In this document: positions 1 to 36,053 of the stretch, one piece after another
Layout: every line of letters starts with the position of its first letter
How positions within the stretch are numbered: position 1 is the stretch's first letter
Origin: Nemertoderma westbladi
Taxonomy: Eukaryota > Animalia > Xenacoelomorpha
Length of the DNA stretch: 38,257 bases
Assembly (NCBI GenBank): GCA_032718475.1
Contig: JAUCBJ010008969.1
Location: 1-38,257 of the forward strand
Direction: 5' to 3'
The notes under the pieces: model-generated
Databases searched by the model: none
Told to the model about the DNA's origin: nothing
The model's input: the letters and a program-made list of their open reading frames with translations, nothing else
Position numbers and translations under genes: made by a program

Positions 1-407
1 AAATTTACACTAGGTGGTTATCTAAAAAATAGTGGGTTTGCAAGTCTACAGTAGTTGCAAGCGTAGCGAGCAGTAATATAGCTGATTACAGTCAGCGCTA
101 AGGGTACCAGGGTTTAGGTAAATAATTTCCCCCCTTTTGCATTATTAAATATTCTCACATTCAACATTTGTCCGCCTGACGAACTGCTTTATTTCTCTGT
201 GAAGGGTGAACAATTGGAGTGTTAAGTCACCAACACTCGTATTAAGTAGCTTGGGAAGCCAAATCAGATTTATTGTTTTGGTTGTTTCTGTTTCGGCTTG
301 TGTTTAGGGCAATTAGCTTGGTATGTTATAGTTTGATTAACCTCATTGTTTCATTCGAAAATACGAACATATCAAAAGGAAGAATCCCCTTTGAGATTTC
401 TTTAACA
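1..407 (+). repeat. 5' LTR of element 1 (3' part only)
   Basis: Direct repeat of 9093-9499; similarity stops exactly after ...TTTAACA. Confidence 0.92.
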
Positions 408-417
408 GTAAACGGCT
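408..417 (+). promoter_or_regulatory. PBS-position sequence GTAAACGGCT (non-tRNA; complementary to LTR site 8724-8733)
   Basis: Abuts the LTR end and lacks the TGG expected of a tRNA PBS; its reverse complement AGCCGTTTAC lies inside the LTR. Confidence 0.7.
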
Positions 418-7727: not shown

Positions 7728-9499
7728 TGTTGCGATATATGGCGCTGTGTACAGAACAACCCGTTATACAGTATAAAATAAGTTAGATAAGTGCGTATTG
7801 ATGTGCAACCGTAATAATTCGATAGGGTAAATAAAAAATATACAAGTTCATTTTATATTCAGTCGATTTTATACAGTATGTAGCCCTATTTATGTCGTTT
7901 TATAATAAAACCCTGATATATTCATTTGCGGTGGCAAAATTCTTTAAAACAAAATATGAATTTTGCCGTTTTTCAATATCTATCGAATCTAATACATTTG
8001 TGCTAATTTTATTTACATATCCTTATAAATCGATGTTTGTGCTAAAATAACGCCTAAATTGTGCTTTTAATAATCGCCAAATTAAGTTGAGGCGATTACG
8101 TGCTTTAATGATTCTAAATTGAGTTCTGCCCACTGGTTGGTCGAAAATCCAGCTGAGACAACCCTGGATGTCGCCTGAATATGTGAGCAAATTTAGACTT
8201 TCCGTCATTCCTACAGTTTAGCAGTCTGGCAGTAGCCATCTTTATTCTTCGTTTTTTGCACTTCCGTTGGTTGTAAATGTTGCTGCTTTCTTCATACATT
8301 TGTGACTTTTGAATATGATTACTGCTTAGTCTGACTGTTGATTTTATATTTCTGATTGCAAATATAATTGGCGCAATGTAGTGAACCAAAATCAACGTTT
8401 GTTTCCTTCGACTGTCTGACTGTCTGATTGGGTTTTACTATGTTTGCGCCGTTACGGTAACTGCTCTCTTTAACATGTTGGGCTAGGGGTAGGCGCCGCG
8501 GGCAGCGGGCTCACTGTTTGGAAGCGACGGGAGAAGTTGGAGGATCCAATGCACGGCACTACCGGCGGGGCTGGTGGCTGCGGTTGGCTGAATTAAGTTT
8601 AGGACCGAGGGCCGGTCGCCATTAAGGCTGTAAGGGGCAAGGCGACCTAGATCTTGTCTCTCAGATTTGCTATTAGGCTAGCTAGGTTTAGGTAGAAAGA
8701 TCACATTGATCTGGGGTGACCTTAGCCGTTTACGCTAATGCTACGTTTATGCTAATGCTATGCTAATGCTAACGCTAATGCTAATGCTATTTATGTGTAA
8801 TGTTTTAGATAGGTGCTAGATATTTGATTGTTTCTGTTTTCTATTTATGCTTGTTAAATTACTGTTAGCTCCAATAATACGGTATTTAGGCTGTCTTTAG
8901 TGTAGCCCAGTAACGTAACTAATTAGCGTTACAAATTCTGGAATACCTAATAATTAGTTCGCAACCCCGTACATTTGAGTAAATGTAGTTTATGTATGAT
9001 AGTATTTAGAATAAAATAAGGACTTCGTACGCTGCATAGCGGAGAATAGTTTTAGTTATTTACACTTTGGAAATACAGAAATATCTTTGGACAAATTTAC
9101 ACTAGGTGGTTATCTAAAAAATAGTGGGTTTGCAAGTCTACAGTAGTTGCAAGCGTAGCGAGCAGTAATATAGCTGATTACAGTCAGCGCTAAGGGTACC
9201 AGGGTTTAGGTAAATAATTTCCCCCCTTTTGCATTATTAAATATTCTCACATTCAACATTTGTCCGCCTGACGAACTGCTTTATTTCTCTGTGAAGGGTG
9301 AACATTTGGAGTGTTAAGTCACCAACACTCGTATTAAGTAGCTTGGGAAGCCAAATCAGATTTATTGTTTTGGTTGTTTCTGTTTCGGCTTGTGTTTAGG
9401 GCAATTAGCTTGGTATGTTATAGTTTGATTAACCTCATTGTTTCATTCGAAAATACGAACATATCAAAAGGAAGAATCCCCTTTGAGATTTCTTTAACA
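7728..9499 (+). repeat. 3' LTR of element 1 (~1772 bp, TGTT...AACA)
   Basis: 3' end fixed by the repeat with 1-407; 5' end inferred from the PPT plus TG. Contains a GC-rich promoter-like block (8480-8650), CCAAT at 8546 and (GCTAAT)n-like repeats at 8734-8790. Confidence 0.78.
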
Positions 9500-11608: not shown

Positions 11609-11939
11609 CAACCTACAGTAAGACACGAGTTTACTTCACTCACCTTAACAACGAGTATTCAATATGAGCTGAATCTGGTAGACTTTCACCATCACCACGA
11701 CTCCATTCTATCGCTGGGATAGGCATACCTTGTGTGACGTCACAATGGAATTCGACATTACCACCAACAGGTTTTATTTCCTCTTTCGGTATTATATTTA
11801 CCTCGGGTGTATCTGAAATGTAGAAAATACAGCATAGTAAATAGTAATGTCGTCAGACCTAGTAGAAACAAAAACCTACACTACAAGTGCTCGGAAGTCT
11901 AGGTGCAGTTGACTTTAATTAAGGAACGTTTTTTGTTGG

Positions 11940-12304: not shown

Positions 12305-12466
12305 TGGCGGGGTGAAAGATTATAATCCCTGGCCTAACGGCTGAATAAAATAATTCCAGAATTACGGTACTATTGCCTTTAAGTGATGTTATCGGTTATC
12401 GTTATCACAAAATTAGAATTTACTGTAAACAAACATAAAAATACCTAAAATATTCAAAATAATATT

Positions 12467-13722
12467 TGTACGCGCTTTTGAAGACCTTTAGCAGTTTAAC
12501 CTGCCAAAATTTATATGTCTTTTGGTTTATAAATAGACTTTAGAAGTTGACAAATATTTAATACCAATAAACACAACATTAGCAGAAGCCAGCCTAGTGC
12601 GCGTCCATTCACCCGCTGGATATACCCGGGAGACTGGATTCTGAGGGCTTAGATTATTATTGCAGTGTAAGCTTACTGTATTATTCGATTGATCGTTAAT
12701 AAATAATTTCTGACTAATATTATTCACTTTCGGGAAATATTAACAGTTCCTTTAGGACGTGGCGCTCTATCTAGGTAAACAGAGATATGACTTATACTAA
12801 TCACAACGGTAAGTCGGTAAGGCTTATGATTCACGTATGAGGCGCATTCTTTAGGAAATGCTTAGTTATCAGTCACAATCATGCACACTACCGGTAACAC
12901 ACAATACTGCTCACTAATTTGCCGACCGTCAATGAATTTTATCATATATAAAGAGAACAGCAACGGACTCATGTAGTGCTTATCAAATAGCATTAAATTC
13001 ACTACAAACCACAATAATATAAGTCGCAATCGCTATATATAACCCGTCTCTCTAACCTGTAGTGTATCAAGAAAATTGGGAAATTTGGGTTCTTTATAGA
13101 TGTTATCCAAATAATATTCAACCAACAGATACAAAATATGACAACAGCAAACAGCAGCACAACAATGTATGTTGAACCGATAATGCAAGACTGAACGGAG
13201 TTGCACCGATAACAGTTATACGCTCTATAATCTTAAGCCTACTAATGTTTCTTCTAAAGTATGAAAACGAATTGACTCTAGAGCCGGTGTTCCTGGCCTA
13301 GATAGAAACAACACAACAGTAACAAGAAAAACAGTAAGACTGAACACTCCTAGCATGATCTGCCAAAATATCTCCACATCGACAGAAAAAATCGCTCTGA
13401 TTGGCTGTTAAGCTAAACAAAGAACCATGTGTCCAATGGCCGTTTCCATGTCAGCAACCAGCTGTTAGATGTCGTAAGCTGAATCATCAAGGCTAAGCTG
13501 TGCCAGGGTATTTGGTGCATTGCGGGTTTTTTGCCTTACCATGTCCGCCAAAGCACACATATAGAAGAATGACGTTTATGTCCGTTAAAACACCTATAAC
13601 GGTACCTTGCGGGCGAGGGGGATATATATATAGTTAGAGAGCTTTTTAGAGTATTCCAGCGCCTGGGGGGAAACTGGATTGCAAAGCAAAAGGGCCAGTT
13701 ATATCCCACAGAAGCTTTTACA
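12467..13722 (-). repeat. 3' LTR of element 2 (1256 bp)
   Basis: Direct repeat of 27093-28362, bounded by the TSD and the PPT. Confidence 0.95.
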
Positions 13723-13730
13723 CCGCTCCC
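13723..13730 (-). promoter_or_regulatory. PPT (GGGAGCGG) of element 2
   Basis: CCGCTCCC on + abuts the LTR. Confidence 0.8.
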
Positions 13731-13800
13731 AGAAAATGGGATTTGAGTCTATAAAATATACAAAATCACAGTTTCTAATATACGTAAATACTCTAAACAG

Positions 13801-15250: not shown

Positions 15251-15782
15251 ATCTGCTATCTGAGTTTATTAATATTGTAATGAGTTTATGTTTAGGCGAG
15301 CGGGCGTCGCTGCCTACCTCTCTTCGCCCCGGACAGTGGGATTCTCAGCGCCGATGTACCGTCGTCGCGGTGTTTACGCCAACATGTAGCAACATCACGA
15401 CAACGATAACCGGCACAAGTCACTCCACTGTCCGTCCCAAAGGCTTGAATCCACTTTAGGTTCTTTCTATAGGAGAGTTGGGCTACTTTCACAATTGCGA
15501 CTAGCTACTGTAAACACACCTTAGCAGTAACATTCACCTACAAACGCACAAATTCCACACAACTGTCACCAATTGTACACATACAGGCCATTTGTCCGTT
15601 AGTCAGTGCCTTCCAGAATGTCACGTTATTACTGTGTATCCTTGGATACTAACAGTGTGCTATGTATTCTCTATGCTATGCAATGGGACAAGCTTTCTAT
15701 TGTTCTTTTAACTTGCTTCTAATTCTAGCGTGGGTGTTGCTATGGTGACATTATGGAATGCTAGCGGTAGAATTAGGGTAAT

Positions 15783-18700
15783 AATAATAATAATAATAAA
15801 TGATATTTGTATTTGGTGTTGCAGGCGCCCTTAGGGAGTATTTACACTCTTATCAGGGCGCCTGCAGCTGCCGCACTAATCTAATTTACAATTACCGGTA
15901 AACAAAAGGGTTTTCAGTTCGCGCCTAAATGAGTCATAGGTCATCATGGATTCAGTTGATCGGGTCGATGGCGGTAGTTTATTCCACAAACGAGGGGCAA
16001 ACGAGTAGAAGCTCTTCGATGCTAGGGTGTTTTTCACAAGTGGGACAGAAAGCTTTGAGAGATTGCTGGATCGCAACATACGGGTATCCTCAAGGATAGA
16101 TATTTCATTGCGCAAATAAGTCGGGGCAGTCCCAGACAGACATTTAAATGTGATACAAGCAAGCTTATAATTAATCCGTGATTCAATGGGCAGCCAGTGA
16201 AGGGATTTCAGCATTGCCGTTGCCGAGGTGTACTTGTATTGTCCATTGATAACACGATATCGCGGAGAATGAGTAACCAATCTTGCAGCGCTGTTTTGTA
16301 TCATTTGTAGACGTTTAACTACTGATTTAGCGGATGTTTTAAGGACAGCGTTTGAATAGTCGATTCTGCTGGTTATGAATGCGTGGACTAGGGTTTCTAG
16401 AGCTGAAGTTGTAAGGTAAGGCCGAATTTTATACAAAGACCGGATATAATATTTCGATTTCGCTGCTGTTGCTACTATCTGATCTTTAAATTTCAATTCA
16501 CTATCAAACACAACTCCGAGAGATTTAACCTTATCAGAGAAATCTATCTTAACGTTTCTGTATACAATTGTTCTAGCATTCAGAGGTATCTTCATTCTTT
16601 GTTGTTTCGTGCCATATACAATCAGTTCAGTTTTATCTGGGTTAATTTGTAGGTGATTAACGTCCATCCAATCAGCAACAATATGTAGCACAGCAGTGAT
16701 ACGAGTCTTCAGGGTCTCTATATCATCAGCATATCCAGTCACAAAGAATTGTGTGTCATCAGCATAGTTAGCACCTTTCACTCCTAATGCATCCACACGC
16801 CAGAACAGGTCAGTCATATACGCATTATAAAGTGCTGGCCCAAGGATACTTCCCTGAGGCACGCCGGTTTGAAGCAATGTTTTATCAGATGTACTCTCAT
16901 CAATTTTCACGCATTGATGTCTGTCAGCTAAATAGGACTCAAAGAGATTAAGTGCAGCACCAGTGAACCCAAATTCTTTACTGAGCTTAAATATAAGGTT
17001 TTTGTGATGGACAGTGTCAAACGCCGCACTCAAATCAATATAGGAGCACAAAGTAACTTGTTGATTTTCTATTCCCTTAAGAAATTTATTTAGAAGAAAT
17101 AGATTAGCAGTTTCAGTGGAATGGTGGCGTCTGTAACCAGACTGTGTCTGGTGAAAAGCTAGCTGTGGTGTAGCTCTATAAAGTATCACTTTCTCAACTA
17201 CCTTAGATAAGAAACTAAGGTTTGACACTGGTCGATAATTTTTTAATATCTCAGCATCCAACTCCGGTTTCTTTAAGAGAGGTCTTACGATAGACAGTTT
17301 AAGAAAGGCTGGGAATTCCGCATCTGCTAAAACCATGTTTATATACATCGTTAAGGGCTGAATAACAACGGGAATTACTGATTTAAATAAAGGCGTTGGC
17401 ATACAGTCCAGTTCGCAAGTTGCATTTGACATCTTCCTTATGAGTTGAGCTAAGTCCTCCTCTTGAAAAGGCTGAAATTCACAAAAGTCTGTTTTATACA
17501 ATTTTGGGAGATTATTACATCGACTGCTCGTATTGAATGTCAACATAATAGTGTTAATTTTTTCAGTGAAAAAATGTGAGAACTTTGTTGCCAACTCAGC
17601 ACTATTGCCATGCTTAGTCGGTAAAACAAGGTTTCCTCCCTTTCCCAATAACCTTTTGAACTGTTTCCACAGAAGTTTTGAGTTAGTCGAATTGGTATTA
17701 ATATAATCGCAGTAAAACGCCCTTGTAGAATCGCGAAGCAATTTCGCTAGGTCCGACTTTGCTATATTTAGATTAACTTTGTTCTGCTCAGTCCGTTCTT
17801 TGTGAAACGCAAGTTCACACCGTCTCTTCTCCTTCCGTTTAGTCTGGATCCCCTCCCTATCTTCCTCCCTGATTTTCGAGTGTTTAGTGTTGATCTTTAC
17901 AATCTTCTCTTTCATGGGAACATGTCGTTCAAACAAATTCCTCAGGTTCTTTACCCACGCCTCAAACCCTTTGCATGTTAAATCTCCACTACTCTTATCC
18001 AATCCATTAACTTTCAGCTCCGTTATAAATTTATCCTTATCAAAGTTTTTCCAGGCTCGAAAACTTCTCCGTTCCTCATAAGATTTAGAGACATTTCTGG
18101 ACAGATTCGATATCCATCGCATACTGGCATGATCACTAAACACTTCGTCTATAGGATCCAGATCAACATCAGCGATTTTATAGCCCAGGCTAGCTACAAA
18201 ATCTAGAGTATGACCGTCCTTATGCGTTGGACCCGTCTTCTTGAAATCGAAACCGTGTGTCTCCAATAGATATTGGAACGACTTGTCAGATTCTAACCAT
18301 AAATTCGCATCGCCAAAAATAGTAATTGTGTCGAACTTTAACGACATGTCTTCCAATGTACTATCAATAATTTTCTTATACTCGACAATTGAAGTTGGAT
18401 ACCTTTTACTATTTGGGAGGCGATGAACGACCATGAACAAGTCTTTGTCGGTTGCTAGAAGCAAGGATTCAAACTGTTCATTAGCCGGGATGGGTATTTT
18501 TCGCAGTTTCACCGAGTTGTGCGCTATAACGGCCACCCCTCCTCCAGTACGGTCTTTCCTCGTCAAATGCCGATTATAGTAATCCTCCGGAGTGGCGAGA
18601 TTCAAGAACTCAACGTTGTTCCATAGCTCGACTATGAATACTAAGTCTAGCGTTCTAGCTATTATGTCCTCTTTGACAGCATACACTTTATTCTCATTCA

Positions 18701-18986
18701 GCGAGCGCACATTCTGATACATGCATCTTAGGGAATATTCCTTATCAGCACATCCTCGCCGTCGTTGAGTTTGTTTCTCCGCCATTACTTCAGACACTGG
18801 AAATACGAGTGCATTGACCAGTAGGAGCAACGCCGCGACTACTGGTATGAAGAAAACCAAGTCACAACGTATTACTACCATGATAGAAACAGAATTAATG
18901 GAGTTATCGTAGCGAGTTTAAACTTAGATAATTGTAGAATTCACAGAATACTGAAATCACGGTAATCAGGTAAATCACGGTAAATC
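15783..18986 (-). mobile_element. L2/CR1-group LINE inserted in element 2
   Basis: Intact EN-RT ORF, (TTA)n 3' tail at ~15779-15799, candidate TSD AGGGTAAT at 15775-15782 and 18987-18994. Confidence 0.88.
15876..18881 (-). CDS. LINE ORF2: APE endonuclease + reverse transcriptase (1001 aa)
   Basis: QNVRSL, GGGVAV, GDAN, TLD, SDH (APE); NYRPVSNLSFLSK, DLSAAFDTV, GVPQGSILGP, YADD (RT); QNSAARLV and LHWLPI typical of the L2 clade. Confidence 0.95.
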   Translation of the reverse strand: MVVIRCDLVFFIPVVAALLLLVNALVFPVSEVMAEKQTQRRRGCADKEYSLRCMYQNVRSLNENKVYAVKEDIIARTLDLVFIVELWNNVEFLNLATPEDYYNRHLTRKDRTGGGVAVIAHNSVKLRKIPIPANEQFESLLLATDKDLFMVVHRLPNSKRYPTSIVEYKKIIDSTLEDMSLKFDTITIFGDANLWLESDKSFQYLLETHGFDFKKTGPTHKDGHTLDFVASLGYKIADVDLDPIDEVFSDHASMRWISNLSRNVSKSYEERRSFRAWKNFDKDKFITELKVNGLDKSSGDLTCKGFEAWVKNLRNLFERHVPMKEKIVKINTKHSKIREEDREGIQTKRKEKRRCELAFHKERTEQNKVNLNIAKSDLAKLLRDSTRAFYCDYINTNSTNSKLLWKQFKRLLGKGGNLVLPTKHGNSAELATKFSHFFTEKINTIMLTFNTSSRCNNLPKLYKTDFCEFQPFQEEDLAQLIRKMSNATCELDCMPTPLFKSVIPVVIQPLTMYINMVLADAEFPAFLKLSIVRPLLKKPELDAEILKNYRPVSNLSFLSKVVEKVILYRATPQLAFHQTQSGYRRHHSTETANLFLLNKFLKGIENQQVTLCSYIDLSAAFDTVHHKNLIFKLSKEFGFTGAALNLFESYLADRHQCVKIDESTSDKTLLQTGVPQGSILGPALYNAYMTDLFWRVDALGVKGANYADDTQFFVTGYADDIETLKTRITAVLHIVADWMDVNHLQINPDKTELIVYGTKQQRMKIPLNARTIVYRNVKIDFSDKVKSLGVVFDSELKFKDQIVATAAKSKYYIRSLYKIRPYLTTSALETLVHAFITSRIDYSNAVLKTSAKSVVKRLQMIQNSAARLVTHSPRYRVINGQYKYTSATAMLKSLHWLPIESRINYKLACITFKCLSGTAPTYLRNEISILEDTRMLRSSNLSKLSVPLVKNTLASKSFYSFAPRLWNKLPPSTRSTESMMTYDSFRRELKTLLFTGNCKLD

Positions 18987-20091: not shown

Positions 20092-23000
20092 TTACGTTAT
20101 GGAGTCCCTAGATATTTGTCGGATTAGGGAAGTGGTCGTAGGAAGAGTATCTTGCCTTCCATAGTTTCCGGACAGTTTTCGGTCTCTTTCCAGTAAACAT
20201 AAACGACTAGCTGGGCGATTGAGTTGTTGTGTTACTTTCTCCGCTCCCTTGGCCTGTCTAATCTTCACCGGGGTAAGATGAGGAGGCCATTCTTCTTCTT
20301 CTTTACTTAAGAAGTCGGATCCACCTAACCAGCCTGGAGTATCTATCAGTTCTTGAGGAGTTGCTCCTCTGGAAGCGATGTCGGCTGGATTAATCGTCCC
20401 AAGGCAATATCTCCATTGATCTACATTGGAGTTAATATCGTCATTATCTGAGGAGTATGGTGTTTCCTCAGTTGGATCGTCCACATCACTGCTCTCCACT
20501 TCCCATTCCTTTACTTGGTATACCTGTTGTTGAGGTAATCTCTCTTTGAGAGTTCTACGGGAAGGGCCAGTGAAGTACCAACCTACTCTAGTTCTTACCG
20601 CATAGGTTTGTAGTGGCTGCGGTTGAGCAGGCCGTTTCTCCAATGTCTCGAGCGCCTCATGCGCATTTTGGCCGATGAGTATTTGCACTCCAGGATAATC
20701 TGTCTGGAATCGAGGTATCTTAAGATGTTGGATGCTCTCATCCTCGTCCCAATTATAAAGGTCTGCTTGGGTAGTAGCGAAGTTCTTTATAGCCACCATT
20801 TTTACCGACCTTATACCTTGTGCTCCTAATTTATCCTGGGGGGTGGACAACACACCTACATAGTAATCTGCCGTTAGGGTAGATTTCCAAACCTGCATAA
20901 TTCCTGACATATTCAATTTAGTCCGGAATTTGGGTTGTCCAGCAAAGATATCTTCGGCTAGTTCTTGATCGATGAATGTTCCTGTGCTGCCGGAGTCAAG
21001 GAGGGCGTTCACTATGTAACTTTTGTTAGGACCGTGAACTCTTACCTGCACTACAGGAAATTCTCTGATTCCTACGTTGGAAGTTGGAGCTTTCCAAGAT
21101 GGTTGTCTGTCAAAGGTAGTTGGGGGGAACTCATTATCGGTGTCCTTTTCATGCGTAAGTGCTCGATACACTGCGGTATTTATTAAGTAACAGGATTCGT
21201 TGGCGTCGGAGAATTCGTCCGTATAGAATCCTTCCATCTCAGATTCTTGATCAGTGTCATTTACATCACTGAATTGGACATGTAGTTCGGGCTCACTTAC
21301 CTGACTCGGGTTGTCTCGTTCGAACTCACTGTGTAACAAGATGTGATGTTTCGCGCCACACTTTGCACACTTTACGTCGGAGTAACAGGTTCGCCGTTGG
21401 TGTCCTGATCTGAGGCAATTATAGCATAACCGCTTATTCCACAGGACTGCACGTCTGTCTACAAGGGATTTCTTTAGAAATTCAGCACACGCACTCAAAC
21501 GGTGGGGCCCGTCGCACAGCGCACATTTTGGTTTGATGTTACTCACTTTACCTTGGGTAACGTTATGCACTCTCGTTCTTTCTTCGGGCTTTCTTCCGTG
21601 AATTCTCTTAGGAGACGTGGGAGGAGTTGTTGTTACCTGTTCTCTCCTATCGTTGGTTCGAGACTTATATTTACTTACGTCTTTGTAGGTCTTGTTGTCA
21701 TAGTAAGATTTTGCTGTGTCTTTCCCACTGTCCTCTTCTTGAGAAGCTTGGCTTTCGCCGTCATCAGTATAACACACGGGTATTATCCTTCTCCTAGAAA
21801 CGGGTTTCTCACTTACCTTATTTTCCGATGTTTTCTCTCTGGACTGCTTTATGAGTTGTAATTTTACTTCACTATCTAAGAAGGACATGAGATCAGCCAT
21901 GGTAGGGCTTCGTCGTTGCTGCTCATTCATATACAACACTTTCTTGTCCCAGCGTGTACATACTCCACCCTTTGGTAAAGTAGAGACTACGGCTCCAATA
22001 ACCATGGAACTCTGATATTCATGAGACTTACCTAACCAGTCCAATTGTCTACAGATCTCCTGAATCTCATCGGAAAACTCTATAATCCCGCTACTAAGGA
22101 AGTTTCGGGGGGCTACTAATTTTGCATACAAATACTTAGCTATGTTATCCTTGTTACCGTACCTGATGTTTAATGTATCCCAAACTTGTCTTAATCCTTC
22201 TGGATGTCCAATAAACTTTAACGCCATTAACTTGGGAGGTCCTTCCAAACACTTGATGAGGAATCTAAGCTTCTCTCCGTTAGATAGTACAGAGTTCTGT
22301 ATACTATCTTTGTAATATTCATTGAAAGGTAACCATTTCATCTCATCTCCATTGAATTTGACGATCTCTCCCACTTTAACCGCTTGGCGGGCTTCTGTTC
22401 TAGCCATCTGACGCGTAAAGCTTTCTTGGGCCATCGTGTTATTTAATATCGAATTATCGGTATATAAATTTCCCGGATTATTATCAGGTCTATAGGGAAT
22501 ATCATTAACAACAGGTTTATAATCACCCTTAATAGGGTTTGCTATAGGAGTTTCTACTTCACTAGCAGTATAGATGCGTGTAGGCTCCACACCTTGCGCA
22601 TGTAATACTTCAGACCTAACAGGTTGACACAATGTTACAGGGGGTATTGGTATACTCTTTTGTATATTGACTAATTTGTCGCGTTCCAGCGCGATACTTT
22701 GCTGCACTTCTTGCAATTCTGCCCTACCTTCCCTTACTGTTCCCTTAAGTTGGTGGACAGTCTCCTGCATCTGTCCGAGCAGGAGGTTCATCCCCCGCCG
22801 TCCCTCTTCTACCCACTCGACCGCCGAAGCGGGAGTCGCCAACATTGTAGCGGGCTGACGCGGGACGACGGGAGACAAATCTTTGATTTCTCTCTCAGCT
22901 TCCAGGACAGGGATATTCTCACGGACTGTTCTACCGGGTACATGCAGTGTAGTACTGTGTAAATGGAATTTAGAGTTTGTTTCAGGGAGTACAGGTGTCT

Positions 23001-24894
23001 CTAGCACCGAAGGGGTGGCTTCGAGAAAAGGCCTAATTATTTCAGGCTCATCTGTTATAGTAGGGAGTCTGTTGACGGTAATAATTCGGTCTGTAGGTTC
23101 TGTACTACCTACTGTTGTGCTAGCTAATTGTCTTCTAACGGCTGGGGGCAAATCAGGCAATTTATGACGGTGAGATGTTCTTCTACGTCTACTGAGACGA
23201 GATTGATTTCCTCCACCTTCAGGATCGGTGGTATCCCCTTCCTCCGATGATGTATAGCCTTGGCGTTTGGAAGTAGATCGACTCATCATCTGCATTCGAC
23301 TGTCTGTTAACTGCCTACCGATGCTGTCTTGCGTCTCCTGCAGATTTTCTAACTCCAGCTGGGCGGTCTCCTCAGACGCTCTCCGTTCTGCTTCTGCCAC
23401 TGCCTCCGCCGCCCTTCTTTCCGCCTTTCTGTCTGCTTCGGCTGCTGCTTCTGCCGCCTTTCTGTCTGCTTCTGCTTTTGCCTCTGCCGCTTTTATTTCC
23501 GCTTCGGCCGCTGCTTCTGCCGCCTTTCTGTCTGCTTCTGCTTTTACCTCCGCCGCTTTTATTTCCGCTTCGGCCGCTGCTTCTGCCGCCTTTCTGTCTG
23601 CTTCTGCTTTTGCCTCCGCCGCTTTTATTTCCGCTTCAGCCGCTGCTTCTGCCGCCTTTCTTTCCGCCTTTCTGTCTGCTTCTGCTGTTGCCATTGCCGC
23701 TGCTATTGCTGCTGCCTTTTTGTCTTCAATCCGCCTTTTCTTTACTTGTCCTTCTTGAGCTCTAGCTATGCTGAGACGTTCATCAAATTTAGCTTGGTCC
23801 GCAGCTATCATCTCAGTATCGATTGCGTCCAACACAAGCTTGGTTCCTTCACTATTAGGGGAAAGTCCAGACAGCCGTCTCCTCAACTCTTCGTCTCCTA
23901 GGAATCGCTGATAGTCGGACAGATAAATGTCGATACCGTCTCTAGTTCGCGGTCTCTCTGCTGTCACTTCGCTTTCCGCTTGAGAAAGGGTGGCATCGGT
24001 TGGTTCTTCATAGGTTGGTCTCTCAGCCAGCTGGGATTTCCACTGGGCAGTTTCTTGTACTTTGAGACTTACCCGCTGGAACCAAGTCTTGACAGCAACC
24101 TGCAGCGACGTGTCCTGTCTTCTTTTGGAAGTTTCCTCAAAGGCTGATAGGATTAGTCTAATACGTAGGGTTCTTTCGCGTACTTGATAAAGCAGCTCTT
24201 CCTGCTCTTGAGGTCCTTGGGGTTGTCGAAACAATTGTTCTTCCAATCGCTCTAAGGAGCCGAAGAATCCCTGCACATATCCTGCTGCCGACCTCTTCCA
24301 AACAGCTGGATCCATCGTATCTTTAGTCACTCCCATCCTGTGTATATCTTCCCAAGTAGCTTCGGACAAATCTAACGGGAGTCCGGGTCCGGGAAAGTTC
24401 CATTGTGACTCGACAATAGACACCAATTCTTCCCTGGCGTATCCCGCATAATCATCTTGGGTCGCTCTCTTACTTCTCGCCCAATCGGCTTGATGTTCCT
24501 CCACCGCAATCAATATAGTAGTTAGTACTGCGGCAGGAAGGGTGAGAAGGGGATCCGAGTAGGCTGTAGCCGTCATCTGCACTCCGCGTTCGGGGGTCAG
24601 CTCTACAGCATCCGAACTACTGGAGCTATCGGATCGCTGGGAACAAGTTTCTTGACTAGGATGTTGCTGCTGTTGGACAGCTGCTTCCTGGTTCCGTTTG
24701 ACTTGGGCCCGAGTGCCGATGATAGACCTACGGTGTTGGATTAGCTTAGGGTCTGATACTACTACTGGAGGGATGACCTTTCTTTCAGTATGAGGTGAGC
24801 TGAACTCCTTTCTTAATCGCTCCACACTCCTATCTGTGTCACAGATGGTTGTATCGATTAGACTGTCTGATAGGTTTTGCTGGGTGTCAGACAT
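20092..24894 (-). CDS. gag: BEL/Pao Gag-protease polyprotein with in-frame loss of RT and integrase (1600 aa)
   Basis: FNGDEMKWLPF..EKLRFL..LNIRYGN; CALCDGPHRLSAC, CYNCLRSGHQRRTC, CAKCGAKHHILLH; protease ALLDSGSTGTFI; TRVGW..GP; then QWRY..NPADIASRG..WL.G..FL..WP and RPASRLCLLE remnants. Confidence 0.92.
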   Translation of the reverse strand: MSDTQQNLSDSLIDTTICDTDRSVERLRKEFSSPHTERKVIPPVVVSDPKLIQHRRSIIGTRAQVKRNQEAAVQQQQHPSQETCSQRSDSSSSSDAVELTPERGVQMTATAYSDPLLTLPAAVLTTILIAVEEHQADWARSKRATQDDYAGYAREELVSIVESQWNFPGPGLPLDLSEATWEDIHRMGVTKDTMDPAVWKRSAAGYVQGFFGSLERLEEQLFRQPQGPQEQEELLYQVRERTLRIRLILSAFEETSKRRQDTSLQVAVKTWFQRVSLKVQETAQWKSQLAERPTYEEPTDATLSQAESEVTAERPRTRDGIDIYLSDYQRFLGDEELRRRLSGLSPNSEGTKLVLDAIDTEMIAADQAKFDERLSIARAQEGQVKKRRIEDKKAAAIAAAMATAEADRKAERKAAEAAAEAEIKAAEAKAEADRKAAEAAAEAEIKAAEVKAEADRKAAEAAAEAEIKAAEAKAEADRKAAEAAAEADRKAERRAAEAVAEAERRASEETAQLELENLQETQDSIGRQLTDSRMQMMSRSTSKRQGYTSSEEGDTTDPEGGGNQSRLSRRRRTSHRHKLPDLPPAVRRQLASTTVGSTEPTDRIITVNRLPTITDEPEIIRPFLEATPSVLETPVLPETNSKFHLHSTTLHVPGRTVRENIPVLEAEREIKDLSPVVPRQPATMLATPASAVEWVEEGRRGMNLLLGQMQETVHQLKGTVREGRAELQEVQQSIALERDKLVNIQKSIPIPPVTLCQPVRSEVLHAQGVEPTRIYTASEVETPIANPIKGDYKPVVNDIPYRPDNNPGNLYTDNSILNNTMAQESFTRQMARTEARQAVKVGEIVKFNGDEMKWLPFNEYYKDSIQNSVLSNGEKLRFLIKCLEGPPKLMALKFIGHPEGLRQVWDTLNIRYGNKDNIAKYLYAKLVAPRNFLSSGIIEFSDEIQEICRQLDWLGKSHEYQSSMVIGAVVSTLPKGGVCTRWDKKVLYMNEQQRRSPTMADLMSFLDSEVKLQLIKQSREKTSENKVSEKPVSRRRIIPVCYTDDGESQASQEEDSGKDTAKSYYDNKTYKDVSKYKSRTNDRREQVTTTPPTSPKRIHGRKPEERTRVHNVTQGKVSNIKPKCALCDGPHRLSACAEFLKKSLVDRRAVLWNKRLCYNCLRSGHQRRTCYSDVKCAKCGAKHHILLHSEFERDNPSQVSEPELHVQFSDVNDTDQESEMEGFYTDEFSDANESCYLINTAVYRALTHEKDTDNEFPPTTFDRQPSWKAPTSNVGIREFPVVQVRVHGPNKSYIVNALLDSGSTGTFIDQELAEDIFAGQPKFRTKLNMSGIMQVWKSTLTADYYVGVLSTPQDKLGAQGIRSVKMVAIKNFATTQADLYNWDEDESIQHLKIPRFQTDYPGVQILIGQNAHEALETLEKRPAQPQPLQTYAVRTRVGWYFTGPSRRTLKERLPQQQVYQVKEWEVESSDVDDPTEETPYSSDNDDINSNVDQWRYCLGTINPADIASRGATPQELIDTPGWLGGSDFLSKEEEEWPPHLTPVKIRQAKGAEKVTQQLNRPASRLCLLERDRKLSGNYGRQDTLPTTTSLIRQISRDSIT
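23395..23700 (-). repeat. 66-bp coding repeat (KAAEAAAEAEIKAAEAKAEADR)n
   Basis: 66-bp period visible at 23461/23527/23593. Confidence 0.9.
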
Positions 24895-24974
24895 GTTTAG
24901 CTATACAGTTGAATGCTTACTGCTATAGTTACAGTTAAAGCAAGTCTAGTAATTCAGTATGACCGTTGGCCTAG

Positions 24975-27027: not shown

Positions 27028-27081
27028 AGGTTTACCGGTCGACCAGTACTTTCAACTTTATTGCTTACTGCAATAAAGACA

Positions 27082-27092
27082 ATAACTGTTAT
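27082..27092 (-). promoter_or_regulatory. PBS-position sequence ATAACAGTTAT (non-tRNA; complementary to LTR site 27858-27848)
   Basis: Abuts the 5' LTR on the - strand, no TGG; the complement ATAACTGTTAT lies in both LTRs. Confidence 0.65.
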
Positions 27093-28362
27093 TGTACGCG
27101 CTTTTGTAGACCTTTAGCAGTTTAACCTGCCAAAATTTATATGTCTTTTGGTTTATAAATAGACTTTAGAAGTTGACAAATATTTAATACCAATAAACAC
27201 AACATTAGCAGAAGCCAGCCTAGTGCGCGTCCATTCACCCGCTGGATATACCCGGGAGACTGGATTCTGAGGGCTTAGATTATTATTGCAGTGTAAGCTT
27301 ACTGTATTATTCGATTGATCGTTAATAAATAATTTCTGACTAATATTATTCACTTTCGGGAAATATTAACAGTTCCTTTAGGACGTGGCGCTCTATCTAG
27401 GTAAACAGAGATATGACTTGTACTAAACACAACGGTAAGTCGGTAAGGCTTATGATTCACGTATGAGGCGCATTCTTTAGGAAATGCTTAGTTATCAGTC
27501 ACAATCAGGCACACTACCGGGAACACACAATACTGCTCACTAATTTGCCGACCGTCAATGAATTTTATCATATATAAAGAGAACAGCAACTGACTCATGT
27601 AGTGCTTATCAAATAGCATTAAATTCACTATAAACCACAATAATATAAGTCGCAATCGCTATATATAACCCATCTCTCTAACCTGTAGTGTATCAAGAAA
27701 ATTGGGAAATTTGGGTTCTTTATAAATGTTCTCCAAATAATATTCAACCAACTGATACAAAATATGACAACAGTAAAAAGCATTAAGACGGTAGGTTAAG
27801 ATATGATATGTTATGAATTGAACTGATATGGACCGTGATATGCACTGATAACAGTTATACGCTCTATAATCTTAAGCCTACTAATGTTTCTTCTAAAAGT
27901 CTGAAACGAATTGACTCTAGAGCCGGTGCTCCTGGCCTAGATAGAAACAACACAACAGTATCAAGAAAAAACAGTAAGACTGAACACTCCTAGCATGATC
28001 TGCCAAAATATCTCCACATCGACAGAAAAAATCGCTCTGATTGGCTGTTAAGCTAAACAAAGAACCATGTGTCCAATGGCCGTTTCCATGTCAGCAACCA
28101 GCTGTTAGATGTCGTAATCTGAATCATCAAGGCTAAGCTGTGCCAGGGTATTTGGTGCATTGCGGGTTTTTTGCCTTACCATGTCCGCCAAAGCACACAT
28201 ATAGAAGAATGACATTTATGTCCGTTAAAACACCTATAACAGTACCTTGCGGGTGAGGGGGATATATATATAGTTAGAGAGCTTTTTAGAGTATTCCAGC
28301 GCCTGGGGGGAAACTGGATTGCAAAGCAAAAGGGCCAGTTATATCCCACAGAAGCTTTTACA
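27093..28362 (-). repeat. 5' LTR of element 2 (1270 bp)
   Basis: Repeat of 12467-13722; followed by the TSD. Confidence 0.95.
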
Positions 28363-28480
28363 ATATTCCGACAATAATGTTTGTTTACCTCCTAGCAAAA
28401 AATAGTGTGTGTGTGTGCATAGCTCTTGGTAGGATGATACTACAGATGCATCGCTATTGTTTAATTTCAATTCAATTTTA

Positions 28481-28766
28481 ATGTAGCTACAGTAGCTCTT
28501 ATAAAGGTCTAGATTACTGCATGTAGCTACAGTAGCTCTTATAAAGGTCTAGATTACTTCATGTAGCTACAGTAGCTCTTATAAAGGTCCAGATTACTGC
28601 ATGTAGCTACAGTAGTTCTTATAAAGGTCTAGATTACTGTATGTAGTTACAGTAGCTCTTATAAAGGTCTAGATTACTGCATGTAGCTACAGTAGCTCTT
28701 ATAAAGGTCTAGATTACTGCATGTAGTTACAGTAGCTCTTATAAAGGTCTAGATTACTGCATGTAG

Positions 28767-28770
<4 letters not shown>
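28481..28770. repeat. 40-bp minisatellite, left part (~7 copies)
   Basis: ATGTAGCTACAGTAGCTCTTATAAAGGTCTAGATTACTGC. Confidence 0.97.
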
Positions 28771-28802
<32 letters not shown>

Positions 28803-30194
28803 GGATCGGCATGCTGCATTGCAGCTGCATTTTTAGGAATGCTGTGCCGGCTTGTCAACAAAATTGCACCGCCACAACTCCCTATCACCCATGACATTTG
28901 CTAGATCATCCGCATCTTTAAGGCCTGTGTCCTTTAAGATGCGTCTCAAGAAAGTCATGGGCTGTCCACCATGCTTATTCACTCCATGAGGCTGCCAAAG
29001 TACAAGATTATGCACTGGCTGGTCCTCACGGCGAAAGCAATGTCCTGCAAAGCGGAGGCGATTTTGTTCTAGTGTCAAGCTTGGGGGAACCAATGAGACA
29101 CCTCCAATGTTATATAGTGTCTGGTTGGAGATGTGTGCATTGTACTTGACACAATGAACCCGGCGTAGCATTCTTGTGAACGTGCCATCCAGAGATTTGG
29201 TGTCCTCAGCAGTTAGAGCCCAGCATGGACTCCCGTAGAGGAGTACTGGAACTACTGCTGCTCTAAATAATCGGACCTTAAGTTTCCGATTAATTCTCGG
29301 TGACTTCCAAATCCTGGAAAGCCTATTCAAGGCTGCCCATGCCTTTCCCTTACGTATTCGAAGGTCCTCACCTGACTTCCGGATCCATGATCCCAGGTAA
29401 CAGAAGTCGTCCACATGCTCAAGCATACCATCCTTTGAGCTTATGCTCATCCGATCAGAGACTTGCTGAGGACTTTCAAAGTTAACTGTCATAATTTTGG
29501 TCTTTCTGGAGTTAATAAAAGGACCAACACTAGAAGCAGCATGTTCTAATGAGCTGAGGAGCCGTTGGGCTCCCTCTAATGATTCTGAGAGTACTCCTAA
29601 GTCATCAGCAAAGTCTAGATCAGTTAGGTACTTGGCAGGATTTCCTCGACTTCTGGAGCCAGTAGGTGGAGTTATCATTACCCCATCATCATTATGATGA
29701 TCTAAGGACATGCGTAGAACATAGTCAACCACAATAATGAACAAGAATGGTGCAAGTGTGTCTCCTTGGAGGACGCCCCATAACACTTCAAATGGTTCTG
29801 TGTCACCGTCAACAGTAGACACAAATGTTGTCGAACCATCGTATACTGATCTGATTGCTGCAATAATTTCATCAGGAATCCCATATAATGAAAGTATGCT
29901 GAACATACGTGAGCGAGAGACTGAATCAAAGGCCTTGAAGAAGTCAACAAAGATAACAGCCAGATGCCTGTCTTTCTTTTTTGATAGTTCTTCAATTATC
30001 CTTCTAAGTGCCAAAATGGGCTCCATGGTCCCACGACCTTTACGGAACCCATTCTGATTTCCACGGAGCAGTCTCTCAATGGGATCCCTGATGCGATTTA
30101 ATAGAATCCTATTGTATAGCTTTGCAGCAATCGACATCAATGAGATTCCCCGAAAAGAACCATAGAGTGTTAGGTTGCCCTTCTTGGGAACTGG
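28771..30194 (-). mobile_element. 5'-truncated RTE-clade LINE with (TAG)n tail, inserted in the 40-bp satellite
   Basis: (CTA)n on + at 28767-28802; RT ORF; the satellite resumes at 30194. Confidence 0.92.
28833..30140 (-). CDS. RTE reverse transcriptase (N-terminally truncated; frame open to ~30194)
   Basis: PVPKKG..RGISLMSIAAKLYN, QNGFR, DFFKAFDSV, GVLQGDTLAP, DFADD, YLGS, RLRFAGH. Confidence 0.92.
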   Translation of the reverse strand: MMSIAAKLYNRILLNRIRDPIERLLRGNQNGFRKGRGTMEPILALRRIIEELSKKKDRHLAVIFVDFFKAFDSVSRSRMFSILSLYGIPDEIIAAIRSVYDGSTTFVSTVDGDTEPFEVLWGVLQGDTLAPFLFIIVVDYVLRMSLDHHNDDGVMITPPTGSRSRGNPAKYLTDLDFADDLGVLSESLEGAQRLLSSLEHAASSVGPFINSRKTKIMTVNFESPQQVSDRMSISSKDGMLEHVDDFCYLGSWIRKSGEDLRIRKGKAWAALNRLSRIWKSPRINRKLKVRLFRAAVVPVLLYGSPCWALTAEDTKSLDGTFTRMLRRVHCVKYNAHISNQTLYNIGGVSLVPPSLTLEQNRLRFAGHCFRREDQPVHNLVLWQPHGVNKHGGQPMTFLRRILKDTGLKDADDLANVMGDRELWRCNFVDKPAQHS

Positions 30195-30794
30195 TAGTTA
30201 CAGTAGCTCTTATAAAGGCCTAGATTACTGCATGTAGTTACAGTAGCTCTTATAAAGGTCTAGATTACTGCATGTAGCTACAGTAGCTCTTATAAAGGTC
30301 TAGATTACTGCATGTAGCTACAGTAGCTCTTATAAAGGTCTAGATTACTGCATGTAGCTACAGTAGCTCTTATAAAGGTCTAGATTACTGCATGTAGCTA
30401 CAGTAGCTCTTATAAAGGTGTAGATTACTGCATGTAGCTACAGTAGCTCTTATAAAGGTCTAGATTACTTCATGTAGCTACAGTAGCTCTTATAAAGGTG
30501 TAGATTACTGCATGTAGCTACAGTAGCTCTTATAAAGGTCTAGATTACTGCATGTAGCTACAGTAGCTCTTATAAAGGTCTAGATTACTGCATGTAGCTA
30601 CAGTAGCTCTTATAAAGGTCTAGATTACTGTATGTAGCTACAGTGGCTCTTATAAAGGTCTAGATTACTGTATGTAGCTACAGTGGCTCTTATAAAGGTG
30701 TAGATTACTACATGTAGCTACAGTAGCTCTTATAAAGGTGTGGATTACTGCATGTAGCTACAGTAGCTCTTATAAAGGTCTAGATTAATGCATG
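30194..30794. repeat. 40-bp minisatellite, right part (~15 copies)
   Basis: Same unit as 28481-28770. Confidence 0.97.
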
Positions 30795-32794
30795 AGATAC
30801 AAATTAATACAGGAGTACTTACGACAGTAGACATAATTAAATCATTAAGATCATTAAGTATGAAACTAATTCATTTAGCTACCGGTATATCTTAAGCCCG
30901 CACTGAAAACAAAAACATGTTATTAATGTAGTGGGAATGGGTGAGTGAATAACCATACATGCACTGCTGTTGTCACATAAACCAGAAAGCCAACCACTTT
31001 GGCCTCGTGTATGTGGGAGTAACATTGGCTTGAGTTTTAAATAATTTATAAGTTGCTTGTCGCTACATACATTACAACCATTTAAGTGCAATGCACTCCA
31101 TAGTTAGGTCAATGCTTCTTACTGCAGTGTACCGGTAGTGTTTCGTAATCATTCTGACAGGTTATTCCCTTTCCCACCCAAGTATACCTGCATATAGCGG
31201 ATGTAATAATTATAAAAATACAATATCAGACAATACAATATTAATACAACAATCAATACAATATTGTCAGGATACGGCCCAAAAAGTAAAATTAACTAAT
31301 TAGTGCAATTAAATTGTAGAATCCATAAATCATAAAGCATATTCCTACCTTTGAATACGATATACCATATTCCTACTTTGGGGACAAAATCCATTTATGG
31401 CGAATCCAACTTTCTTACCAAAACAGTAAACTCTAAGCAAACAAATCTACTGCAGTATTGGACTTTTAACCGGTGAGGCAGAAAACAGTCTACGAACGGA
31501 CAAACTTCGATAATACAAAATCCCGCGCAGCGAATCCTAACAATCGTACTAACTGGCTGACAGACTAAAAGCGCTCGTACACTTTGCCGCGGTGTGATTT
31601 ATATGGGGTGGGGTTGCTAGCTAAATGTCTAACTAGCGGGCGAACTGCGGCGTGGACAAAAATATTTTATATATTTCGAGGTGTAATTAATTTCTAACGC
31701 GTGTGTGTCCTTGAATTTTACGATCGAAAATTTTGGTTGAACCACCTTTGCTTCATACTATTTTACTGGGTTTGGTGTGCATTTTTACAAATATGAATCA
31801 AATTCTAAATATTTTAGTTACGGTCTGTAGGTCTAATACTTACAGATGATAAGGCTCGTTCCCCTTTTGTGTATTTACAGGACTCAAATCAGGCATAAAG
31901 TATTAATAACTACGCCCAAAATTCGGCAATTTAAAATACCAGCTCCCTAATACTAAGAAGAAATATGTTAGTTTACTACAGTAGGCGTACAATTCTAATA
32001 GCTAGCCTGGTCTCCTTATCTAGAATTTTGGTTGCCTAGTTGGGCGTGGCAACTTCCTATCAGAATGTCGGCGGGGACACGGCAAGTGTTAGTATCCCAA
32101 AATAGCCCTAATATGTTATGCGCCTAGTAGCAGTAAACTGCCCGACCGCCTGAACGGTACAATCTTGATTCAGGCAGAAATACGGTTAACCTTCTACTGG
32201 CCTACAGACTTTAATACAAACGATGGACACCGTTTTACCACCAAACAAGCCACCAGCGTACCTATACCCGGCAAAACAAGTTAGGCGTACAGTGTTTGGT
32301 ATACCCTGCTTGTGTACATGCCCTGTAATGGCGTGCTTGTGTCTTATCTGTGTACTTGTATCTAGTACTTGTACTTTGTGTTCCCGTAGGAATGTGAAGG
32401 GGTACCGCGGGTTCTGCCGGAACCAAAACAATACTGTTCCTAAAATTTTATTTTTGGCGCACAGCGTGTCACTACTTCTACCTTCAATCTCAGGTCTTAT
32501 ACTTAGGTAGCAAGGCATCAAGCGCTGTCTAACCTTCGGGCGGTGGGCGAAGAAATACGAATCTATGATATGTGGCTGGTCTCTTCTACATTCCGCCGAT
32601 GTTCCCGTCTATTGCTGCGGCCCGATGTTTAACCTGCCATCTGTCCCTCTAGTTGTGTTCACCGTGGTGAAGCATGTTAAAAGACAGATATAACAATAGT
32701 TCTAACTTTATTACAAAATAACAAATTTTAAAGAAACAAATTACGAAATAAAGTGCATAATAATACAAGATTGAATTACTAGTGATTGATTGAT

Positions 32795-32954
32795 TGAACT
32801 AACTGAACAAACGCACCTTTTATAGCAAATCAGTGCTTCCAAACAATCTAGATGGTTCTATAGGTTCTATTACGTTTTTAAAGATAATTATTGGTCCAGC
32901 GAATGTGTAACTTACACGACATTGGTTACTGACAAATAACTGCAATCATATTGG
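32795..32954 (-). promoter_or_regulatory. Pol II promoter-like cluster: three CCAAT boxes, TATAAAAG, TCAGTT
   Basis: ATTGG on + at 32890, 32921, 32950; TATAAAA at 32824-32818; TCAGTT at 32806-32801. Confidence 0.45.
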
Positions 32955-33030
32955 TTAAACTACTTTGAACAGATACAAATCAATCATAGCGGTTAATTCA
33001 TTAAGTTGAAAATTATCACAAAAAACAATT

Positions 33031-33103
33031 TGCACCTGCTAGGATTTGAACTCGATACCTATTAAACGACTGTCCAACGCATAACTGACTGAGCTACTGA
33101 ACC
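33031..33103 (-). pseudogene. Degenerate tRNA / tRNA-derived SINE head
   Basis: A-box-like TAGCTCAGTCAG and B-box GAGTTCAAATCC at tRNA spacing; acceptor stem does not pair. Confidence 0.5.
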
Positions 33104-33179
33104 ACTTAAGCGATGATATAGTGTTTAATTTTGTTGGTTACCGGTGAAATACTGTAGACACCTTTACATATAATTTCCT

Positions 33180-35243
33180 GTGAACCAGATAGAATATTTA
33201 ACGAACATATAAAGATGTCCCTCCCATTAATCCTTCCTATTCTTGTAGGTTTATATAATGTGTGTCTAAATGTTGGGTCCTTACCTTCATCATGGAAAAC
33301 AAACATAATTAAAATACTCTACAAGGGTAAAGGAAGCAAAACCTCGCCGGGCAATTATAGAGGTATTGCCCTCATCTCAACCCTACTAAAGATCTTGACA
33401 ACTGTAATAAACAAAAGAGTACGTTCTCACATCAATCACTTGCTTCCCGAGGAACAGTTTGGATTTACCAAGGGTAAATCAACGCTTCAGGCACTGAGAA
33501 AACTGTTAAACGATGTGTCTTCAACATTGCGAGGTGATGGGGACTCCCGCGTAGTATACGCGGTGTTCGTTGACTTCAGGAAAGCTTTCGACTTTGTCAA
33601 TCGATCAATCCTGCTCTATAAAATGTACTACTCATTGTATACATTGATCCAAGACCTCCTTAGAAACTCCATTCGAGTCTACGACGGAATTAAATTCTCC
33701 AAGTTGTTAAATCAACTTCGCAGTATATTACAAGGAGACTGCTTCTCGCCAAGTTGTTTCCTGATTTTTATAGCTGCCCGCGCCATAGCTCTCCGCCAGA
33801 TCTCTGTGATTATAAAATCTATATATCTCGCAGACGACTTGGTGATATATTCCTCATGTCGTGATGACATCCAGTGCGTTCTTAACACTTAACACAACTG
33901 GTGCTCATCAATCTCAATGGAACTCAATATCAGCAAAACTGAAATCCTAAAGTTTAGAAAGGGCGGTCGACTCGCGCATCTGGATAAATTTACATATGGC
34001 GGGAAAACTATAGATATATGTAACCAGTATGAATACTTGGGGGTTGTACTACAGCCAACATTATGGGGGTTGTACTACAGCCATCATTATGCTTCGCAAA
34101 GCACTTAGATCAAAAGAAGCAGAATTGCTTCACAATTATTGGGCGTCTTCCAAATCTCCAGCTCTTGACCATTGGAACTGGAATAAAAATATTTGAAATG
34201 AAGATCATTCCTTGTGTGACATACGCCTTCTCGGAAATCGCCAAACACTTCACCATCGGGAATATGAAGGAATTAGATAAAATTAAAGGAACATTTCTCA
34301 AACGCCTACTGGGGTTGCCGAAAAATTCCTCTACGACTCTAGCTCTAAAGTTAACTGACAGCAAAACACTCATTGAAGATCTAGCAACTAAAACGCCAAT
34401 CTCAATGGGTTACTCTCGTGGCCCAGGCTTCAATTCAAATGTCTGCAAAGGCTCAATGCAGTCGAACAGACACCTAGTCACCCGGGTAACCTAGCATGGT
34501 TTCCATTTTAAACTTTGCCTTGATCGAACGCCGTTTCATGAACTGACGGATACATGCCGGTGTCAATTCTGCAGTGATTCAGCACAGGATAGGATTCATG
34601 TACTACACTGCAGCAGCTTACCCTCCATTACCTACCATAGGTCCGATTATTTAGAGCAGCAGTAGTTCCAGTACTCCTCTACGGGAGTCCATGCTGGGCT
34701 CTAACTGCTGAGGACACCAAATCTCTGGATGGCACATTCACAAGAATGCTACGCCGGGTACATTGTGTCAAGTACAATGCACACATCTCCAACCAGACAC
34801 TATATAACATTGGAGGTGTCTCATTGGTTCCCCCAAGCTTGACACTAGAACAAAATCGCCTCCGCTTTGCAGGACATTGCTTTCGCCGTGAGGACCAGCC
34901 AGTGCATAATCTTGTACTTTGGCAGCCTCATGGAGTGAATAAGCATGGTGGACAGCCCATGACTTTCTTGAGACGCATCTTAAAGGACACTGGCCTTAAA
35001 GATGCGGATGATCTAGCAAATGTCATGGGTGATAGGGAGTTGTGGCGGTGCAATTTTGTTGACAAGCCGGCACAGCATTTTTAAAAATGCAGCTGCAATG
35101 CAGCATGCCGATCCTAGTAGTAGTTACCCTCCATCGTATCCATCACACAGACATAACTCTCTATCTAATTACAGTAATGTATACTGTTATAATGTTATTT
35201 TATTTCATAGTAAATATCTTAATTCAATTTAAAAAAAAAAAAA
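33180..35243 (+). mobile_element. Decayed 5'-truncated non-LTR retrotransposon (RT + C-terminal CCHC) ending in poly(A), interrupted by an RTE copy
   Basis: PDRIFNE, NYRGIAL, QFGF, DFRKAFD, LQGD, LADD, YEYLG; CQFCSDSAQDRIHVLHC; stop at 33890; 26-bp duplication 34039-34090; A13 at 35231. Confidence 0.85.
34639..35123 (+). mobile_element. Short 3' fragment of the same RTE family, with TSD TTACCCTCCAT
   Basis: Near-identical (about 5 differences seen) inverted copy of ~28795-29278; (TAG)3 tail; TSD at 34618-34628 and 35124-35134. Confidence 0.93.
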
Positions 35244-35610: not shown

Positions 35611-36053
35611 CGACTATTCGACCCAGTGAACTGAGGGTAAGTGGCAAGTGGTCGGCAGTTCGGCTTACATATATTATCATAGGCCTACAATAGACTACTA
35701 TATGGAGGGTCGCTAAAAGTCGCAAAACTTTATATGTATACTATAGGTGGAGCCGACTTTGCCGACCAATTCGACTATTCCGACCACCTCTTGGGCCGTG
35801 TATAAAGGCGACTATTCGACCCAGTGAACTGAGGGTAAGTCGCAAGTGGTCGGCTAGTCGCTTATATATATTATATAAAGGGGTGGTCGGAAGAGTCGAA
35901 TTGGTCGGCAAAGTCGGCTCCACTTATAGTCTACTGTCTACATATAAAGTTTTGCGACTTTTGACTCTCCATATGCCATATTGAATATTGTGTATGTAGG
36001 CCTGCTGTATATGATATATGTAATCCACTGCACCACTTGCTAGTTACTCTCAG
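35611..36053. repeat. Foldback/MITE-like inverted repeat with internal direct repeat
   Basis: Arm ~35631-35790 is inverted at ~35880-36053; 35611-35677 is repeated directly at 35809-35875. Confidence 0.8.

Follow-up and report, generated by a model that had tools for sequence, protein, structure and literature searches.

The question raised by this locus is how an LTR retrotransposon with no tRNA-type site beside its LTR could prime reverse transcription. The window, that is, the whole 38,257-nt stretch of DNA analysed here, contains two elements of this kind, element 1 on the forward strand and element 2 on the reverse strand. Element 2 is a defective, non-autonomous BEL/Pao-type LTR retrotransposon with the following structural and coding features.

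27093..28362, minus strand: 5′ LTR (1270 nt, TGT...ACA)
12467..13722, minus strand: 3′ LTR (1256 nt, TGT...ACA)
28363..28367, minus strand: target-site duplication AATAT, upstream copy (5 bp)
12462..12466, minus strand: target-site duplication AATAT, downstream copy (5 bp)
13723..13735, minus strand: purine tract, ending in GGGAGCGG and abutting the 3′ LTR on its upstream side
20092..24900, minus strand: gag-protease frame (Gag with DUF1759 and Cys/His knuckles)
15876..18917, minus strand: nested LINE-type RT frame, outside the proposed mechanism

The assignment to BEL/Pao is based on the TG..CA LTR pair, the target-site duplication and the purine tract, together with a BEL-type Gag (DUF1759, a marker of BEL gag, and a triple Cys/His knuckle) and a protease. 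A 5-bp target duplication is usual for BEL/Pao. The gag-protease frame terminates in a 51-residue piece (20427–20275) resembling the RNase H end of BEL Pol (E 9e-13); this is all that remains of a BEL-type Pol. Neither the proteins of element 2 nor those of element 1 gave any match to RT or integrase. The proteins of element 2 match BEL-type relatives and not the Pol of Ty3/gypsy chromoviruses, the lineage of Tf1 and sushi. These relatives are full BEL-type polyproteins of 22–29% identity. No close relative was found among 1.84 billion representatives, where the best 150 matches had 24–39% identity over the matched stretches; viral contigs gave 0 confirmed loci, and in metagenomes searched with element 2's own protein 0 of 28 candidates were confirmed. 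Since both window elements are without RT and integrase and their relatives are distant, they represent a non-autonomous, unplaced BEL/Pao branch. Ahead of the 3′ LTR of element 2, at 15700–13801 (minus strand), are Cys-rich broken frames and a 251-residue frame, possibly an accessory gene; these had 0 Pfam or Atlas matches, the best Atlas score (0.81, frame 13804–14556) being uninformative.

The features of element 2 that bear on priming are as follows.

27082..27092, minus strand: primer-binding position ATAACAGTTAT, abutting the LTR with no spacer
27848..27858, minus strand: candidate self-primer ATAACTGTTAT in the 5′ LTR, a perfect 11-nt complement of ATAACAGTTAT
13209..13219, minus strand: candidate self-primer, 3′ LTR copy
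27056..27078, minus strand: 9-bp hairpin immediately past the primer-binding position (predicted fold)
27821..27859, minus strand: TATAA overlapping the primer, with an Inr-like TCAGTT at +32 (rival promoter reading)
27183..27188, minus strand: ATTAAA at +670, the sole poly(A)-signal-like hexamer of the 5′ LTR

The geometry described in the original prediction, an LTR followed directly by an 11-mer whose complement begins at 27858 and again at 13219, is borne out by these coordinates. The complement is contiguous, with no intron, and begins 766 nt from the 5′ LTR end. Among dinucleotide shuffles of the 5′ LTR, 4 of 5000 reached 11 nt at offset 0 and 13 of 5000 did so at offsets 0–5, and 9 of 13,319 arbitrary 11-mers from the window have such a complement. 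No tRNA-type TGG site was found near either LTR, element 2 having its first TGG at offset 47 and element 1 at 175, and no tRNA genes were found in the window. Both window elements have, within the LTR, a perfect complement of at least 10 nt to the sequence starting 0–5 nt past the LTR, the published criterion for predicting self-priming. The caution that the 11-mer is nearly palindromic is justified: the sequence is AT-rich and one base away from a direct repeat, and a local hairpin, ACAATAA/TTATTGT, is predicted at the LTR end. Yet in both LTRs the base at the centre is the one expected of a complement rather than of a repeat, and the site of element 1 is non-palindromic (best direct match 5 nt). 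Element 1, which like element 2 encodes a DUF1759 Gag, is organized as follows.

1–407, plus strand: 5′ LTR, cut by the window edge
408..417, plus strand: primer-binding position GTAAACGGCT, after the 5′ LTR
7728–9499, plus strand: 3′ LTR
8724..8733, plus strand: candidate self-primer AGCCGTTTAC, in the 3′ LTR

A 30-nt tandem array (about 70 copies or more; 9346–11700) adjoins the 3′ LTR of element 1. Element 1 has its own 10-nt LTR match, beginning 776 nt from the LTR end, a length reached by 5 of 5000 shuffles at offset 0 and 55 of 5000 at offsets 0–5; arbitrary window 10-mers with such a complement number 77 of 13,324. The two LTR families indeed lack evident similarity, since 6 of 6 segment comparisons gave nothing alignable (19–128 of 200 shuffles scored as well), and the primers differ as claimed: when sites are swapped, each pairs with the other element's LTR over 6 nt only. 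The CCAAT boxes lie where they had been placed, at −186 from the primer in element 2 and −178 in element 1. TAGAAGA is present at −37 in element 2, but the similar TAGAAAG of element 1 is off register at −31, and the upstream motifs are at most a candidate conserved promoter. A second CCAAT, at +153 (27705) in element 2 and +147 (8871) in element 1, is again nearly in register.

To call element 2 an independent second case, as the original prediction did, is an overstatement. In both elements the purine tract ends in GGAGCGG, the offset is zero and the loop measures about 760 nt, and the two were joined to each other in one quick gag tree (support 83, with a long-branch warning), a pairing that was not recovered in a later tree. 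The distance from primer to LTR end is 755 and 766 nt in the window elements, versus 44–216 nt in 10 relatives; because a distance of about 760 nt is absent from all 10, the sequences suggest common ancestry of elements 1 and 2 rather than full independence.

The two LTRs of element 2 differ most just beyond the primer. The patch 27771..27847 (minus strand) contains 13 substitutions and 19 gap columns, compared with 18 and 3 across the other 1193 nt. This 77-nt patch is repeat-rich and could mark a strand-transfer hot spot or stem from recombination with a different copy. A contig set, X1, aligned to the window (628 records) contains many element variants but leaves the primer site uncovered in close view. 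At the primer-binding site its cover is too thin to weigh the count of 0 variants at 27083–27092 and 1 at 27082 (in one depth-2 contig). No canonical splice ends were found at four LTR joints in the X1 contigs.

We compared these elements with other BEL elements in two sets. The first comprised the best 80 of 402 metagenome loci found with a BEL alignment, of which 17, belonging to 6 families, had an LTR end that could be fixed by comparison of both LTRs (for L022 it was moved by 2 nt onto the nearest CA). In the four families tested against shuffles, contiguous complements did not reach significance. Partial matches were seen to follow splice acceptors, and one GT..AG intron was then permitted; all 6 families now gave 10–13 nt at offset 3, with 0, 0, 3, 0, 4 and 0 of 200 shuffles reaching the same. 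L067, which has a non-TGG site and an end set by the contig end only, gave no self-complement. The second set comprised 30 loci from genome records, 5 of which were too short or without upstream DNA. Among the 25 examined, an LTR pair was missing in 6, the element continued past the contig end in 3, the best repeat in 3 was something other than an LTR, and an LTR end was available in 13. Of these 13, nine carry a TGGTCCTT-type site, presumably for tRNA-Tyr, and a self-complement of at most 6 nt. The other four lack such a site and, once an intron is allowed for, have complements of 11, 11, 11 and 14 nt (reached in 4, 6, 4 and 0 of 200 shuffles). In three of these the offset is 0 and the site opens with GTAAA, as does that of element 1.

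Taken together, a self-complement of 10–14 nt occurs in 10 of 11 BEL elements without a tRNA-type site versus 0 of 9 with one (Fisher p 1.2e-4), or 8/9 versus 0/7 once near-identical families are collapsed (p 1.4e-3). These p values overstate independence because kin have the trait in common, and since the tallied rows are kin the result is a clade-level trait and not 20 independent tests. On sequence grounds, a candidate self-complement is a trait that exists in the BEL superfamily and does not turn up by chance in elements of the tRNA type. In the 10 relatives the complement exists only across the GT..AG LTR intron, whereas in the window elements it is contiguous. The predicted introns are 75–697 nt long, and the best donor is GTAAG in 8 of 10 relatives though this was not imposed. 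The split primers have AAC or TTTAC at their end, except for one with AACT. Intron-split primer complements are present in L001, L013, L022, L047, L068, L075, L081, L089, L091 and L094, and also in L036, L048 and L055. A GGA(G) motif lies about 20–22 nt ahead of the primer 3′ end, in the spliced reading, in L013, L036, L047, L068, L075, L048 and L022. With offsets of up to 8 allowed, neither element 1 nor element 2 yielded an intron-split primer with AAC at its end.

When only the LTR start was known, a blind scan of 7 families gave matches in 4 (3 spliced and 1 contiguous 13-mer) and none in 3; in all 3 controls it recovered the true LTR end. When the sites and LTRs of 9 families were cross-compared in a swap matrix, 6 sites fitted their own LTR best, and the other 3 have one primer in common. 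Short duplications begin at or span the primer 3′ end in 4–6 of 12 elements, a signal spotted after the fact whose Fisher value ranges from 0.02 to 0.43 depending on definition. Duplications and LTR divergence at the primer end, the latter likewise spotted only afterwards, are weakly consistent with a strand-transfer point. The duplex extends clearly upstream in just one of 12 elements, and such extension is not significant (79 of 1000).

In quick gag-protease trees, 20 rows including nearly all self-complementary families cluster with support of 88–92. Elements 1 and 2 fall outside that cluster as long branches, beside L022 and a tRNA-type element, and the relatives do not establish inheritance of the trait by the window elements. 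The BEL elements L081–L110 sit inside prokaryote genome records (mostly MAGs) and are likely misbinned host DNA; L088 is a whole BEL copy in a 1.44-Mb Wolbachia record.

A precedent for priming by an element's own RNA exists in Tf1, in which the primer-binding site is paired with bases 1–11 of the RNA, which are released by an RNase H cut between bases 11 and 12 (PMC7175516), the primer helix forming part of a three-duplex "pretzel" fold (PMC10085805). We propose that element 2 probably primes in a Tf1-like manner with a fragment cut from its own RNA taking the place of a tRNA and with enzymes supplied in trans. By analogy with Tf1, the RNA would start at or upstream of 27858 and fold back over about 760 nt. 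An exact start at 27858 is possible but somewhat doubtful; the start may lie upstream, because a first exon of 3–8 nt in the relatives seems unlikely, and an internal primer is conceivable because the relatives' primers are intron-split. The RT/RNase H of an autonomous relative would act in trans and cut after 27848, and the new 3′ end would be extended through U5 and R before a jump to the 3′ LTR, leaving a strong-stop DNA that ends at 27847. During plus-strand synthesis the primer sequence would pass into the primer-binding site of the daughter element, and primer and site would therefore stay matched while families diverge. Most relatives are predicted to splice the same primer together by means of the LTR intron; the window elements would carry it ready-made. 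There is about an even chance that self-priming is lineage-wide in much of BEL/Pao, with a spliceosome-built primer in most families and the window elements as a deep, ready-made branch with a loop of about 760 nt.

The self-priming reading draws on the shuffle statistics of the window and on the contrast among BEL elements; RNA folding lends it no support. For an RNA starting at 27858, the minimum-energy fold contains the primer helix, with a 4-bp stem on one side and a local hairpin on the other. The pairing probability of that helix is 0.14–0.23 (0.105 with a shorter 3′ end) and drops to 0.0 with 25–324 additional 5′ bases. Loop-shuffled controls gave 0.83–0.95 in 20 of 20 cases; because they pair far better, the natural sequence disfavours the helix in silico. 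In these models the competitor of the long helix is likely the local hairpin formed by the near-palindromic site and the LTR end. The three-duplex structure of Tf1 was not recovered in the fold of element 2, and prediction over 760 nt is unreliable. Gag chaperones such long-range pairings.

The low folding probability would sit well with a different reading, in which the 11-mer belongs to the core promoter in U3, its match is due to chance or to a duplicated, near-palindromic protein-binding site, and a host RNA is the primer. TATAA overlaps the site in element 2 and TCAGTY follows at +32 (5′ LTR) and +25 (3′ LTR); with TATAA and Inr-like sites 25–32 nt on, the site would fall in U3. That the 11-mer is AT-rich and close to a direct repeat is also compatible with a promoter. 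However, element 1 has its own match with neither a palindrome nor a TATA/Inr pair, the Inr-like site falls within the patch of divergence between the two LTRs of element 2, and none of the nine tRNA-type BEL elements has such a match. We regard this reading as unlikely.

It is very improbable that the primer is the RNA's own 3′ end, ended or cut at the 3′ LTR copy (13209), with the 11-mer marking an R/U5-like boundary. Such a primer would no longer need a start upstream of 27858, and the same 11-mer in the 3′ LTR is followed by a GT-rich stretch, but AATAAA/ATTAAA is absent upstream of the element 2 site, and in 5 of 7 relatives inspected the hexamer again lies downstream of the primer. Splicing could also build the primer of element 2, as in the relatives, if a donor in the 11-mer were joined to an acceptor at 27682; removal of this 170-nt intron would recreate 10 of 11 bases, shorten the loop and make the variable patch intronic. 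The resulting joint, ATAACT/GTTA, would pair with the site at offset 1, and the acceptor comes with a good pyrimidine tract. The donor, GTTATC, is nevertheless poor beside the GTAAG of the relatives, a comparable acceptor context appears in 560 of 5000 shuffles, and element 1 has no equivalent (19 of 60 shuffles), which leaves this reading still more improbable.

Self-priming from the contiguous 11-mer, the preferred reading, can be set beside the known systems. In the sources cited here, self-priming is proven for Tf1 only; for the gypsy relatives of Tf1 and for one copia lineage of plants it is a prediction. Tf1, Tf2 and Tj1, and the Tf1/sushi group generally, resemble element 2 in having no tRNA site and an 11-nt LTR complement (PMC7175516, PMC4600332), and the Tf1 site also begins ATAAC, probably by coincidence (PMC11042837). 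Element 2 differs from these Ty3/gypsy chromoviruses in its BEL/Pao-type gag and protease, its loop of about 760 nt, its non-autonomy and the failure to recover the pretzel. The Tcn1 chromoviruses and the TAR elements (Houba/Osr-1) of Ty1/copia were predicted to self-prime by the criterion of at least 10 bp starting 0–5 nt past the LTR (PMC6317226). Unlike the window elements, they belong to other superfamilies, in plants and fungi.

Within BEL/Pao, tRNA-primed elements such as Achilles share with element 2 the Gag family, TG..CA LTRs and a purine tract; the nine TGG-type BEL elements compared here differ from it in having no self-complement. Achilles differs in its tRNA-Tyr site (PMC4580426). 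Fungal GalEa, which has a conserved hairpin site, resembles element 2 in having no tRNA site and a palindromic sequence at the LTR end, but its pairing partner lies just downstream within the element, whereas that of element 2 is in the LTR (PMC5445492). No account of self-priming in BEL/Pao was found in titles and abstracts, a trait that subscription papers, Repbase reports or supplements may record; by term look-up, the accessible text of PMC3118150, PMC2774666, PMC6238403 and PMC554778 does not mention a PBS or tRNA.

If true, a third self-priming superfamily would show repeated origin or survival of priming without tRNA, with a bearing on whether such priming is ancestral (a question raised in PMC3601003). 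The intron-split primers of the relatives, if real, would link reverse transcription with the splicing machinery of the host. Such families would be missed or wrongly delimited by LTR finders for which a tRNA site is obligatory. Element 2 offers exact coordinates for a predicted RNA end.

The remainder of the window also contains other repeats. Positions 28481–35124 hold a LINE-type RT frame (28833–30197) between 40-nt tandem arrays, a 486-nt inverted copy of 99% identity (28793–29278 and 34639–35124) and a second, broken RT frame (33158–33892). Nested inverted repeats of about 250 nt at 35715–35962 are MITE-like.
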